Source: Candidatus Lloydbacteria bacterium
GTDB taxonomy: Bacteria > Patescibacteriota > Minisyncoccia > Phycocordibacterales > UBA6899
Length of the DNA: 52,294 nucleotides
Reading direction: 5' to 3'
NCBI GenBank assembly: GCA_043719805.1
Contig: JAYSTI010000054.1
Location: forward strand, 1 to 52,294
Both the position numbers and the translations under genes were made by a program. Under the pieces are notes generated by a model. The model did no database searches. It was not told the DNA's origin and saw nothing but the letters and a program-made list of their open reading frames with translations. Positions 194-51,770 of this stretch are shown one piece after another. Position 1 is the stretch's first letter, and each line of letters begins with the position of its first letter.

Positions 194-320
194 GTGGGAC
201 TTTTAGAAATAGAGGAAATTCGCGGCGCGGGGAGGGCGGAAAGGAAGACTTATTCATATAAGTTGACCGAGTCGCTCTGGCCCCACAACAAAGAAGTTCG
301 CCATTTATGAAAGTTCCCAC
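194..320 (+). repeat. Dispersed structured element, family A, copy A1
   Basis: Outer arms GTGGGACTTT / AAAGTTCCCAC; core GAAATTCG...GGAAG-ACTTAT tcat ATAAGT-TGACCGAG...CAACAAAGAAGTTCGCC shared with other copies in the window. Confidence 0.75.
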
Positions 321-4054: not shown

Positions 4055-4310
4055 AAAAACAACTGCAGTAGTGAATATATATCGGATAAATCTGCAGAGA
4101 TGGAATCATTCATTCATCTTACACAAAAAATTCTGAAACAATATTAAAATATCCGGAGCTAACTGAAGGCGTTTTAACTCAAGCTTCCTCCCAAGCGAGA
4201 GCTTACCACTTCCAAATGGCTTCTTGACGGGCAATTTGTTGACTTGCCGTTTGCCGTGACAATGCACCGAGAAATGTCTGCTGGCCACAGGAACTCCAAC
4301 CTGCAGAGCG

Positions 4311-4445
4311 AGGGTTGATGCTTTGAGAAACCGCCTCGGAGAAGGAAAAGCATGGTTCCCGACTTCTGGGGCGGGATTTTCCTTCGAGAGAGAGTGCGGT
4401 CGCCCGCTGGGGCGACCGACATGAGTTTCTCAAAGCATCAACCCT
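4311..4445 (+). repeat. Structured element, family B, copy B1, 21-bp perfect terminal inverted repeats
   Basis: AGGGTTGATGCTTTGAGAAAC (4311-4331) / GTTTCTCAAAGCATCAACCCT (4425-4445); inner hairpins GAAGGAAAA/TTTTCCTTC and CGGTCGCCC-gctg-GGGCGACCG. Confidence 0.75.
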
Positions 4446-4454
4446 AGCGGAGTC

Positions 4455-9218: not shown

Positions 9219-9343
9219 AAAAATCAATTAAATAAATCTATATGCGAGGCGTGGGGAAAGTGAAGAAGAAGACATATTCTTATATGGCGACTGATTCACA
9301 GGGTCCCCACAACAAAGCAGATAGTTTTATTTTATTGATTTTT
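9219..9343 (+). repeat. Family A element, copy A2
   Basis: Arms AAAAATCAAT / ATTGATTTTT; TGCGAGGCGTGGGGAAAG...GAAGA-CATAT tctt ATATG-GCGAC...CCCCACAACAAAGCAG; fills the dnaN-downstream gap. Confidence 0.75.
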
Positions 9344-27827: not shown

Positions 27828-27959
27828 GGACAACTATTCCTTTGTAAGCACATTTGCCCGCTTCCAGCGGCGGGCAAAACTATCCTCGACGAATGCCGCT
27901 TGCAAGGCCAAGCGGACCAAGCCATTCGCCTGCGGAGGCTTACAAAAGATTAGTTGTCC
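27828..27959 (-). repeat. Family B element, copy B2
   Basis: 22-bp near-perfect arms GGACAACTATTCCTTTGTAAGC / GCTTACAAAAGATTAGTTGTCC; inner hairpins TTTGCCCGC/GCGGGCAAA (loop CGCTGGAA on minus) and CGAATG..CCGCTTG/CAAGCGG..CATTCG. Confidence 0.7.
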
Positions 27960-32701: not shown

Positions 32702-33523
32702 GTGCTCGGCGGAGATTGCAACAGCAAGCTTTATCCATGTTTCGATCGACAAGTCCTCACCGCGAGCCTTCGGATCTATTCCGAGTTTGAGAAAGAGCTC
32801 GCCGAGTTTTTCTTTCGGATGATCGAGTCCTTCCGCAAGATTTCCAATAAGCATTTTGCGTTTTGCGCGAAAGCCCGCCTTGATGATGGTAAAAAATTGT
32901 TTCTCTGAAAGCATGCCGAGCTTCTCTTTGTTGATGTTCTGTATCATGAGTATCGCGGAGTCGACTTTTGGCACCGGGTCAAATGATTCTTTGGGAACCG
33001 TAGCGACATACACCGGGTCACCGAAGACCTTTATCGAAAGTGAAAGTATCGTTTCTTTTTTATTGCGAGAGACGATCTGCTCTGCAACTTCTTTTTGCAC
33101 AAGGAATGTGAGCTGTGAAGGCGGGCGGTGTTCCTCAAGAAAGTAACGGAAGAGCATTCCGGTGATGTAGTAAGGAATATTTGCGACAACCTTGTATGAG
33201 GGAATCCTACTTAATATCCCGTCGAACAAGTCGTCCGTAATTTTCCTCGCCAGAATATCTCCCTCGATAAGTATCAGGTGCTCATCGCGAAGTGCGTCAG
33301 AGAATCTATCCATGAGGAGCGGAATGCAGCGTGTGTCCTTTTCAATTGCAATCACATGTGCGCCGGCGTTCAAGAGTGCATTCGTGAGCATCCCCTCGCC
33401 CGGTCCCACTTCAACGACAATATCCCCAGGAAATATTCCCGACACGTCAATTATCTTATCGACAGTTTCCGTCGAGCGAAGAAAGTTTTGCCCTAGTGAT
33501 TTTTTGGGTTGAATGTTTTTCAT
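32681..33523 (-). CDS. rsmA: 16S rRNA m6,2A1518/1519 dimethyltransferase
   Basis: KKSLGQNFL, EVGPGEG, VANIPYYIT, PVPKVDSA; start at MKNIQP. Confidence 0.96.
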   Translation of the reverse strand: MKNIQPKKSLGQNFLRSTETVDKIIDVSGIFPGDIVVEVGPGEGMLTNALLNAGAHVIAIEKDTRCIPLLMDRFSDALRDEHLILIEGDILARKITDDLFDGILSRIPSYKVVANIPYYITGMLFRYFLEEHRPPSQLTFLVQKEVAEQIVSRNKKETILSLSIKVFGDPVYVATVPKESFDPVPKVDSAILMIQNINKEKLGMLSEKQFFTIIKAGFRAKRKMLIGNLAEGLDHPKEKLGELFLKLGIDPKARGEDLSIETWIKLAVAISAEHKKHPHR

Positions 33524-33524
33524 G

Positions 33525-33710
33525 GAATCCGTGCGAGTGGATGAAATTCGAAGCGTGGAGAAAGCGGAGAGCGACCTAAAATTCGACGGCCGTAGGGAGT
33601 ATGAATTTGGAAGTCCCGGAACGGGGAAGACATATTCATATATGTTGACCGAGCTGCAGAGGCATAAGTGCATCACCTTACAACAAGAAGTTCGCCGCTT
33701 GCATGGATTC
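33525..33710 (+). repeat. Family A element, copy A3 (long variant)
   Basis: Arms GAATCCGTGCGAGTGG / CCGCTTGCATGGATTC (all three deviations are G-U on plus); GGATGAAATTCG...GGAAG-ACATAT tcat ATATGT-TGACCGAG...CAACAAGAAGTTCGCC; fills the pcrA-rsmA gap. Confidence 0.78.
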
Positions 33711-33712
33711 TA

Positions 33713-36118: not shown

Positions 36119-37174
36119 ATGCGAAGTCGGGTCAGCGCCCTTCAGACCAAAACGCTTTCATGGAAAAAGCTCGGCTTTTCTATGTTTGCATTCCTCATCA
36201 TCCCAGGAGCCGTTGCATATGCCGGCTTCTTTTCTTTTTTTGGCGATCTTGGGGATATTTTCACAAAGGCAAATACTCAAGAAAAAATAATTAATTCACA
36301 GAATTTCCCTCTTCAGGTTGCTGCAGTTGCATATGGTGCTCAGTCTGTCGAACCTTCAAGTGAGGTGAGCACGGTTGGTGACAGTGCGATACTTCCTGAT
36401 GCGGGACCGGACGGCGGGCTTTCTGATGTCGACAATCAAGAATCAAGTCGTGGGCAGATCAGTCTTTATGTTGTCCACGAAGGAGACTCGCTGGCTTCTA
36501 TCGGGAAAATGTTTGATGTTTCTGTGAATACCATTCTTTGGGCGAACAGCCTTCCCCGGGGAACAAAGCTGACAATCGGGCAGAACCTCGTCATTCTTCC
36601 TGTTTCCGGAGTCCGGTATGTCGTTAAAAAGGGAGATACGGTCGCGTCAATCGCCAAAAAGTACAAAGGAGACCTCGATGAAATCCGTTCGTATAATGGC
36701 CTAGAGGGTGACGTCTTGGCGGTCGGCTCGGTGGTAATAGTCCCTGATGGTGAGATCGCCGCACCTCCGGTTGCAACAAAGCCCGCAACGTCAAAACTTC
36801 GCGGTGCAGGCGGTCCCTCATACGACGGATACTATCGTGCCCCCCTCGCAAACTACCGCAAGACGCAGGGAACTCATGGATACAACGGCGTTGACCTTGT
36901 TTCAAGAGACGGCTCGGGTGCATATGTGATGGCGGCAGCTGTAGGAACGGTAATCATTTCTCGCAACGGCGGATACAACGGCGGTTATGGAAGTTATGTC
37001 GTTATCAAACATGCGAACGGAACTCAGACGCTTTACGGTCATCTCAAGGGAACTGCAGTTTCAGTTGGAGAGAGCGTGGCGCAGGGGCAATTGATAGGAT
37101 ATGAAGGGAATACGGGGAGAAGTTCGGGCACACACCTTCACTTCGAAGTCCGCGGCGCGAGAAATCCATTCTAG
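36119..37174 (+). CDS. LysM-LysM-M23 peptidoglycan endopeptidase
   Basis: Two LysM repeats (YVVHEGDSL, YVVKKGDTV), HGYNGVD, TLYGHL, GNTGRSSGTHLHFEVR; exact start uncertain. Confidence 0.9.
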   Translation: MRSRVSALQTKTLSWKKLGFSMFAFLIIPGAVAYAGFFSFFGDLGDIFTKANTQEKIINSQNFPLQVAAVAYGAQSVEPSSEVSTVGDSAILPDAGPDGGLSDVDNQESSRGQISLYVVHEGDSLASIGKMFDVSVNTILWANSLPRGTKLTIGQNLVILPVSGVRYVVKKGDTVASIAKKYKGDLDEIRSYNGLEGDVLAVGSVVIVPDGEIAAPPVATKPATSKLRGAGGPSYDGYYRAPLANYRKTQGTHGYNGVDLVSRDGSGAYVMAAAVGTVIISRNGGYNGGYGSYVVIKHANGTQTLYGHLKGTAVSVGESVAQGQLIGYEGNTGRSSGTHLHFEVRGARNPF

Positions 37175-37291
37175 CTTGGCGCACTTCGGTCTTGACTGCG
37201 ACGGGCGGTCGGGAGAACTTACGATGAGTAAGCTCTCTCGGACGCGCCCATCTTGTCACAACCGAATTGCATCCAATCTCGAACGGATTTC
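37161..37291 (-). repeat. Family A element, copy A6
   Basis: Minus strand GGATGCAATTCG...GTCCGAGAGAG-CTTAC tcatc GTAAG-TTCTCCCGACC...CGAAGTGCGCC; outer arm overlaps last codons of the M23 gene. Confidence 0.72.
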
Positions 37292-37297
37292 AAAAAC

Positions 37298-37470
37298 CAT
37301 TTTAAGCGGGCGACCTACTCGGTTTTCCTTCAGCAGATTTGGAAGCAGTATAGCACCGCAGAGATACTTCATTTTTCTAAGCGGATAACCGCTAAGAAAA
37401 ATTGGTCGCTCATACCGCCTCTCAAATACCGCCTTAGTCCAAACCTTCGTATTTCGCCTCGCCTTAAATG
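37298..37470 (-). repeat. Probable divergent family A copy A7, tandem to A6
   Basis: Arms CATTTTAAGCGGGCGA / TCGCCTCGCCTTAAATG; minus strand GGCGAAATACGAAGG...AGTAGGTCGCC; inner TTTTCTAAGCGG-ataa-CCGCTAAGAAAA. Confidence 0.5.
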
Positions 37471-44356: not shown

Positions 44357-44513
44357 GAATCTGCGTCAGAAATCAAAAAACGAAATTATGTTAACCCTAG
44401 CGGTCGCCGTGCCTAACATAATTGCAAAAAAGTTCCTCGAATTATTGGGAATCGAGGTGGTTGAGTGGAGTGATGTCAGGACGCCTGTGGGGCATGTCTT
44501 TCTTCTGAAAGCA

Positions 44514-44640
44514 CAAGAGTTTATTAAATAGGTTCGAATGCGAGGCGCGGGGAAAGCGACGAGGAAGGCATATTCATATATGGTGACCGAGTCGCGGGGG
44601 TCCCGCAACAATGCAGGCGAATTTATTTTATGAACTCTTG
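44514..44640 (+). repeat. Family A element, copy A4
   Basis: Arms CAAGAGTTTATTAAATAGGTTCG / CGAATTTATTTTATGAACTCTTG; TGCGAGGCGCGGGGAAAG...GGAAGG-CATAT tcat ATATG-GTGACCGAG...CCCGCAACAATGCAG. Confidence 0.78.
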
Positions 44641-44683
44641 AATTGATCCTGCCATCACTCCACTTAACCACCAAGGAGATAGT

Positions 44684-51642: not shown

Positions 51643-51770
51643 GCAATCATCCAATTTTGGCGAACTTCTTTGCTGGCTTCAATGATCGGTCCGGAGGACA
51701 TACTCAAAGTATGCCTTCTCGGACACGCTCATTTCGTCGTCTCGAATTTCATCCAAAATTTGCCGATTGC
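51643..51770 (-). repeat. Family A element, copy A5
   Basis: Minus strand GCAATCGGCAAATTTT-GGATGAAATTCG...GTCCGAGAAGG-CATAC tttga GTATG-TCCTCCGGACC...CAGCAAAGAAGTTCGCC-AAAATTGGATGATTGC. Confidence 0.78.

Follow-up and report, generated by a model that had tools for sequence, protein, structure and literature searches.

At the 3' end of a LysM/M23 peptidase gene of Candidatus Lloydbacteria a hairpin repeat overlaps the gene: one of its arms is made for the most part of the last codons and the stop, and the other, beyond the core of the repeat, is close to the complement of these codons. How does a repeated element come to carry an inverted copy of the coding sequence of its host? We studied this copy, A6, with the other copies of its family (family A) in the window and in other genomes. 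The window is the whole stretch of DNA analysed (52,294 nt, contig C50 of a 1.40-Mb genome, G000); its features are listed in Table 1.

Positions 37161-37179 hold R-N-P-F-TAG, the final codons and stop of the peptidase reading frame (end 37174), and the far arm matches their complement at 16 of 19 positions. Both points were already in the initial annotation, and both are confirmed; chance would give such a match at about 2e-7 per placement, or about 2e-5 over 100 offsets. The contig of a related strain departs from the window at 37173, right after the TA of the M23 stop. Directly past A6 lies a truncated piece (about 37300-37410) which resembles the branch nested in A3, and on which many contigs from other genomes pile up.

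Table 1. Family A copies of the window and the parts of A6 (coordinates in the window)
Feature	Position	Strand	Remark
A1, family A, upstream of ruvB	195..318	+	arms of shared consensus type
A2, family A, adjoins dnaN stop	9219..9343	+	empty alleles lack both arms
A3, compound: family A and nested insert, occupies rsmA-pcrA gap	33523..33712	+	empty alleles lack both arms
Host LysM/M23 peptidase gene	36119..37174	+	its final 13 nt form the outer portion of the A6 near arm; relatives without element have the same C-terminus
A6 near arm (CG side)	37162..37179	+	13 nt of coding end including stop, and 5 nt; the 19-mer of the initial annotation begins at 37161
A6 core, 93 nt, imperfect hairpin	37180..37272	-	minus strand reads ATG...CG
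A6 far arm (ATG side)	37273..37290	+	complement of near arm at 15/18 (16/19 counting 37291)
A5, family A, within larger inverted repeat	44513..44640	+	contig of related strain skips whole copy and arms
A7, family A, upstream of NYN-domain gene	51643..51770	-	family A match

An ERIC-like family of hairpin repeats

Family A is an ERIC-like hairpin repeat of about 124-131 bp (the shortest is 18+88+18), a dispersed imperfect palindrome which reads on one strand far arm, core (ATG...CG, 85-95 nt), near arm. With a profile search we count 70 copies in the genome, and with a covariance model trained on 27 of its copies, 64. In 52 copies picked by their core alone, the arms of one copy pair at 13.9 of 18 positions against 6.8 of 18 for arms taken across copies, and beyond position 19 the pairing is at background. 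The outer stem covaries strongly, none of 500 shuffles reaching as high, in copies chosen for good arms. On the ATG strand of the 52 copies G.T mismatches number 67 against 22 for A.C, and a dip of pairing in the middle of the arm is seen in every class of copies.

The element has a polarity with respect to genes. When genes longer than 250 nt, predicted by our own gene caller, are considered, a stop codon lies within 22 nt of the CG end in 33 copies of G000 and of the ATG end in none; under a looser ORF rule the counts are 34 against 4 in G000 and 31 against 1 in a second genome, G014. The orientation of the copies tracks the strand of the genes (42:15 among stop-adjacent copies, 554:209 for genes). 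Targeting of a replication strand was considered and rejected, as orientation follows gene strand and not replication.

The covariance model matches 24 of 24 other genomes of the same taxonomic family (1-66 copies each), 2 of 16 elsewhere in the order and, with shallow scoring, 9 of 150 drawn from the phylum; in distant families, it counts 3-8 copies per genome in G058, G104, G126, G194 (family f38) and G162. An exact 28-nt motif of the core is common to records of Candidatus Lloydbacteria and other Parcubacteria. Rfam gives no match to family A at gathering scores. In viral contigs we found 91 exact matches to a 15-nt motif and, among the loci scanned, no profile match to family A.

The window also holds a second repeat, family B (4308-4448 and 27828-27959), which has many copies genome-wide; its arms of 20-24 nt are variable and co-varying, and its conserved motifs lie outside them. 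A 26-nt inverted repeat (92%; 44456-44481 and 44647-44672) surrounds A5 and further small hairpins. Between 14533 and 28738 a minus-strand cluster matches T4SS pilin, a VirB4/TraG-type ATPase and PrgI.

Among known systems, ERIC (also IRU or RU-1; 127 bp; Enterobacteriaceae and Vibrionaceae) resembles family A in its length and long imperfect hairpin, in its TA ends (those of the young copies in family A), in its place near stops with the same polarity and in its ORF fusions. The family A model finds four matches in the whole chromosome of E. coli K-12 (E 8e-4 to 0.53), and all four resemble, by eye, the RU-1 consensus printed in Table 1a of PMC2759123; the two which were checked lie just past the stops of hsdR and iscX, with the polarity of family A. 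A6 aligns to one E. coli match at 77 of 138 positions. A6 exceeds 300 shuffles, with a score of 61 against L231 for a shuffle maximum of 39 and of 43 against L229 for 40, which two other family A copies fail to do; blastn of two family A copies against E. coli genomes gives no match. Family A differs from ERIC by its phylum, by an identity of about 55% at best, by other and far more variable arms, and by the replacement of the near arm with coding sequence, mirrored in the far arm, at seven genes, which we did not find described for ERIC. A conserved terminal inverted sequence, which is a criterion of ERIC, is absent from family A, and for this reason we do not file it as a member. It behaves as ERIC does, and the two are probably distantly related.

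Two other systems share traits with family A. Rickettsia palindromic elements insert in frame into conserved protein genes, as family A does in uvrC (+120 nt, 4 of 20 loci); unlike them, family A is mostly intergenic. Integron attC sites are hairpins placed after a stop codon in one orientation, with conserved bulges and a structure kept while the sequence varies, and family A shares all these traits. Unlike attC, it stands behind core genes (dnaN, pcrA, rpsJ) and not cassettes, and no RYYYAAC/GTTRRRY ends, the end motif of attC, were seen in it.

Host codons mirrored in the far arm

The initial annotation had proposed that the arms may co-evolve with flanking genes, and that the overlap of arms with coding ends be looked for in all copies. 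We find seven genes (M23, rpsJ, rseP, ftsZ, rplB, nrdJ and one unnamed) at which the near arm consists of host coding sequence, and where the far arm tracks what each lineage has changed in its synonymous sites, stop codon and length. An 18-nt host-mirrored arm at gene ends is confirmed at these seven genes, and the proposal is supported for the copies overlapping coding ends, A6 included, and not for all copies. The arms of A2 and A3 are not host sequence, although both copies adjoin genes: as had been read before, A2 adjoins the dnaN stop (at 9343) and A3 fills the pcrA-rsmA gap, with 0-1 bp left on each side by our measure and 1-2 bp by the earlier one.

At the M23 gene a partner arm of at least 15/18 is present in 17 of 100 distinct loci, and in 14 chosen loci the core begins 4-6 nt past the stop while the near arm spans the last 12-13 coding nucleotides. 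Among these loci 70 sites vary, and at 66 of them the far arm agrees with its own host, including transversions and TAA/TAG/TGA changes; with the edge position included the agreement is 73 of 84, for a shuffle mean of 46 and none of 100000 shuffles as high, these 14 loci being kin and three of them sharing one core. The M23 C-terminus is unchanged in loci without the element, in relatives and in other families, which shows that the coding side is the older side. The coding-overlap loci all belong to one family-level part of the tree, yet four changes of state are needed; many lineages have lost the element, and the synonymous sites under the arm still vary freely. One locus, L135, has the element and the last ~21 nt of M23 as in L137, but over the remainder of the gene its sister is L132: among these metagenome loci, this is a recombination between lineages with the element as cargo.

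At rpsJ the far arm follows the host at 13 of 14 variable sites, and at rseP at 26 of 28 sites, across amino-acid changes (4 loci, p 0.08). The unnamed gene (G000:C1:131187-131313) ends with I-D-P-L-N-S; three genomes write this end with three codon sets, and each far arm follows its own.

In the 32 verified coding-overlap copies of the seven genes, the mirrored tract has a sharp edge. Matches are found in 21-32 of the 32 copies at positions 1-18 and in 3-11 of 32 at positions 19-26; position 18, which lies outside the filter applied to positions 1-17 (at least 13/17), pairs in 29 of 32 and position 19 in 9 of 32, which is background, for stop offsets of 5-11 nt. Just one of the 32 far arms has a TA end, and these far arms are imperfect at recurrent positions. 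The offset from stop to core, counted by a strict rule at five genes, is 5-6 nt in 24 copies, 7-15 nt in none and 16-20 nt in 9. The 5-6 nt offset recurs at four genes; the 7-15 nt gap is filled by genome-wide counts and by ftsZ, whose offsets range over 6-10 nt with no single value. Close relatives have unrelated cores at rpsJ and switch there between offsets of 6 and 19-20 nt. The last 5 nt of a pilB-like host gene are mirrored by each of two different elements. If gene ends were captured and then travelled as arms, stop triplets lacking an ORF might be left in the copies; these are slightly raised at offset 6 (7 of 91, for 1-5 at most neighbouring offsets).

In the literature searched we found no description of host-mirrored arms (older primary ERIC papers, which lie outside this coverage, may describe co-variation of arms), nothing on palindromic or intergenic repeats or MITEs in Patescibacteria/CPR, only plant microRNA work on MITE inverted duplication at a target site, and nothing joining ERIC, RNase E, orientation, stop codon and MITE.

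Empty alleles and travelling arms

It had also been proposed that insertion makes an inverted copy of the target, and two findings had been named beforehand as decisive against this: empty alleles lacking both arms, and arms shared among many copies. Both were found, and target-built arms are refuted as a general rule.

Empty alleles lack both arms at dnaN, pcrA, uvrC and A5. Of 15 loci of the genus, 6 are filled at dnaN and 9 empty; in 6 of the latter the following start codon, read by eye, stands 2-11 nt past the stop, too close for an arm to fit between. The element is present at pcrA in 5 of 18 usable loci, and in four of those without it the gap measures 0-3 nt. In uvrC (20 loci, 4 filled, 9 minimal) the filled allele exceeds the minimal one by 120 nt, roughly the length of the core and both arms. 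At A5 a contig from a sample with a ~93%-alike strain (depth 4.6) joins 44512 to 44641 with 4 nt between. We then compared G000 with G014, where both flanks could be mapped for 41 of 70 and 38 of 59 copies. We classed 21 sites as empty with paired arms and tested those, 18 in number, whose length differed by no more than 175 nt. Neither arm is kept at 13/18 or better in any of the 18, which answers in the negative the suggestion that one arm might pre-exist at the empty site. On inspection about 13 of these 18 sites are clean; of the others, two carry another element, one has a remnant, one has a footprint with an internal deletion, and in one the ends are atypical.

The uvrC copy of G000 (L098:2002-2133, or G000:C47:10074-10205) is a full family A element, in frame, whose 120 nt add 40 residues. 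The uvrC copies of G000, G015/G002 and G008 have different arm pairs; other lineages have inserts of 12-33 nt at the same spot, and the small hairpins among them may be footprints.

The arms had been described as unrelated between copies. This is correct within the window, where the near arms of the six copies are mutually identical at just 3-10 of 18 positions, and incorrect genome-wide, where the near arm agrees with that of another copy at 13/18 or more in 17 of 47 copies (control 18-mers, 0 of 47). The terminal sequence is a loose consensus, 30 of the 47 having no other copy at 13/18 or above. The rule of an inverted target copy is contradicted again by young copies sharing both arms and TA ends: three in G015, with cores 98-99% identical and unrelated flanks, have the same two arms, an inherited arm mismatch and TA at both ends, and a G002 copy resembles them. 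All four young copies have TA at both termini, which most copies and A6 do not; over 52 copies TA is enriched at arm positions 17-18, and both ends are TA in 7. A direct duplication of TA at the target was not seen at an empty site in any near-identical strain. Two of the youngest copies adjoin apparent stop codons (frames read by eye).

Arms and cores can also part. Cores have been replaced under unchanged arms in L285/L256, which explains unrelated cores at old sites. In close genomes L236/L277, L240/L282 and L298/L327 have the same CG-side flank and different elements with different arms. Between paralogues arms diverge far more than cores; between orthologues their rates are similar. In G007 and G017 (~95-97% alike) flanks are exchanged across copies (L290, L236, L239, L277), and the chimera L290 has mismatched arms; these copies may be points of rearrangement or of mis-assembly.

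How the mirror may arise

We lean towards the view that the element spreads with both 18-nt arms and that, at gene ends, the far arm is re-copied from the host codons after insertion, the stem being under selection. The element would insert at TA, often within or just past a stop codon; small deletions would then trim the near arm, so that the last codons enter the stem; fold-back template switching in replication or repair would rewrite the far arm, the survivors being presumably those events which leave the coding side intact; and the sharp boundary would be set by selection for a folded shape whose outer stem has 18 bp and, often, a mismatch in the middle of the arm. Template switching in quasi-palindromes is a known kind of mutation in bacteria, by which the arms are made complementary. 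Switching which both creates and repairs stems is a described mechanism (PMC8794818), and the likeness to that account lies in one arm being made the complement of the other, with multi-base changes mirrored. A fixed tract length is not expected of it, while the mirrored tract of family A ends at 18 nt: since ordinary template switches have no fixed length, the drop from 29/32 to 9/32 must be ascribed to selection.

Change in place is likely, being supported by carried arms, empty alleles, cores swapped under kept arms (L285/L256), compensated double changes, the spread of ftsZ offsets and the ftsZ copies L589 and L591, whose cores are 83% identical, whose offsets differ by 2 nt along with synonymous codons, and whose far arms are both in register. 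Double changes, of which 13 orthologous pairs show 5, are Watson-Crick compensated in all 5 cases, for 0.8 expected, and 18 single-sided changes are also seen. Three of these five come from L008/L013, where cores 97% alike over 77 nt come with three mirrored synonymous differences. Selection on shape is likewise likely, on the basis of the excess of G.T over A.C and of the mid-arm dip. Against change in place count the 18-nt edge, the recurrent 5-6 nt offset, the rpsJ switches, the double mirror at the pilB-like gene and L008/L013. Nor did near-identical strains, when compared, show an intermediate in which the near arm is shortened and the far arm still unrepaired.

A rival reading is that copying is measured and takes place at insertion or reinsertion. 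In this second mode, beside moving whole, the element would join with a short near arm at the stop and fold back, and an enzyme would copy the 18 nt beside the core. We regard this as possible and rather doubtful. It would give an edge at 18 nt whatever the stop offset, the one-sided polarity (33 copies to 0 in G000), the 5-6 nt offset and its switches in close rpsJ lineages, the presence at one site of different cores whose far arms are all matched, and the different divergence of arms and cores in paralogues and orthologues. On the other hand, the youngest copies, two of them beside apparent stops, carry both arms with inherited mismatches, an arm is kept at 0 of the 18 empty or altered sites, core conversion accounts for different arms on the same core, and the far arms are imperfect at recurrent positions.

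Nor was a candidate enzyme found among the families searched in the genome. The five Y1 transposase matches of G000 have no family A copy in their flanks, so that the arrangement of REP/REPIN with RAYT (repeats flanking a Y1 gene) is not seen there. The one tyrosine recombinase gene of G000, XerC/D-like by eye, has no copy beside it; neither of two GIY-YIG matches, one of which is uvrC, is linked to family A, nor is the one reverse transcriptase match, which is beside an avd-like gene. The IS630 transposase domain PF13358 is absent from G000, G014 and G015 and present in 6 of 41 genomes, which are incomplete, and a young family A copy compared with 10 PF13358 loci has no match longer than 11 nt. 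IS630/mariner-type MITEs (RUP, Correia) share with family A TA ends, terminal inverted arms and no need of coding capacity. They keep a fixed terminal sequence matching the transposase ends, according to PMC2229807; unlike them, family A has arms which turn over and no matching IS630 end that we could find.

It is unlikely, in our opinion, that point mutation and selection suffice, the host needing the stem in its RNA for processing or termination and the far arm following by single compensatory changes. The G.T over A.C bias, the fixed stem length and the orientation of copies along the genes (42:15 and 554:209) agree with this, as does the effect of ERIC and Correia stems on mRNA stability reported in PMC2229807 and PMC10969869. 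However transversions and indels are mirrored as well, synonymous sites under the arm vary freely, the G.T pairs favour a strand which is antisense to the neighbouring gene, and many lineages do without the element at M23, having lost it. That the element inserted within the last codons and its arm supplied the present gene end, in the way that ERIC copies are reported to fuse with 3' ends of genes (PMC2759123), or that the match is fortuitous, is very improbable, as the N-P-F, K-M-M and S-K-L-R C-termini are the same in relatives without the element, other families included, and as 66 of the 70 variable sites of M23 agree between far arm and host; with the edge included the score is 73 of 84, which none of 100000 shuffles attains.

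Beside the re-copying in place which we favour, we put forward, quite tentatively, that ERIC-like elements could have a second, target-templated mode at stops, in which an enzyme copies exactly 18 nt of the host and the new arm then travels. If this were true, the copy of the target would be inverted and not direct, and it would give a handle on ERIC-type movement, a matter which, according to PMC2229807, had no experimental answer as of 2007.

Finally we must note what family A implies for such movement. The fold and the 18-bp stem are kept while the sequence of the arms is free, even when one partner is protein-coding. This argues for recognition of a folded single strand, against the fixed double-stranded end which IS630 transposases need. 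The coding-overlap sites are also a natural experiment on templated repair: since the protein holds one side fixed, one knows which arm was copied from which. If the 18-nt edge is enzymatic, it would point to a copying step not yet described.
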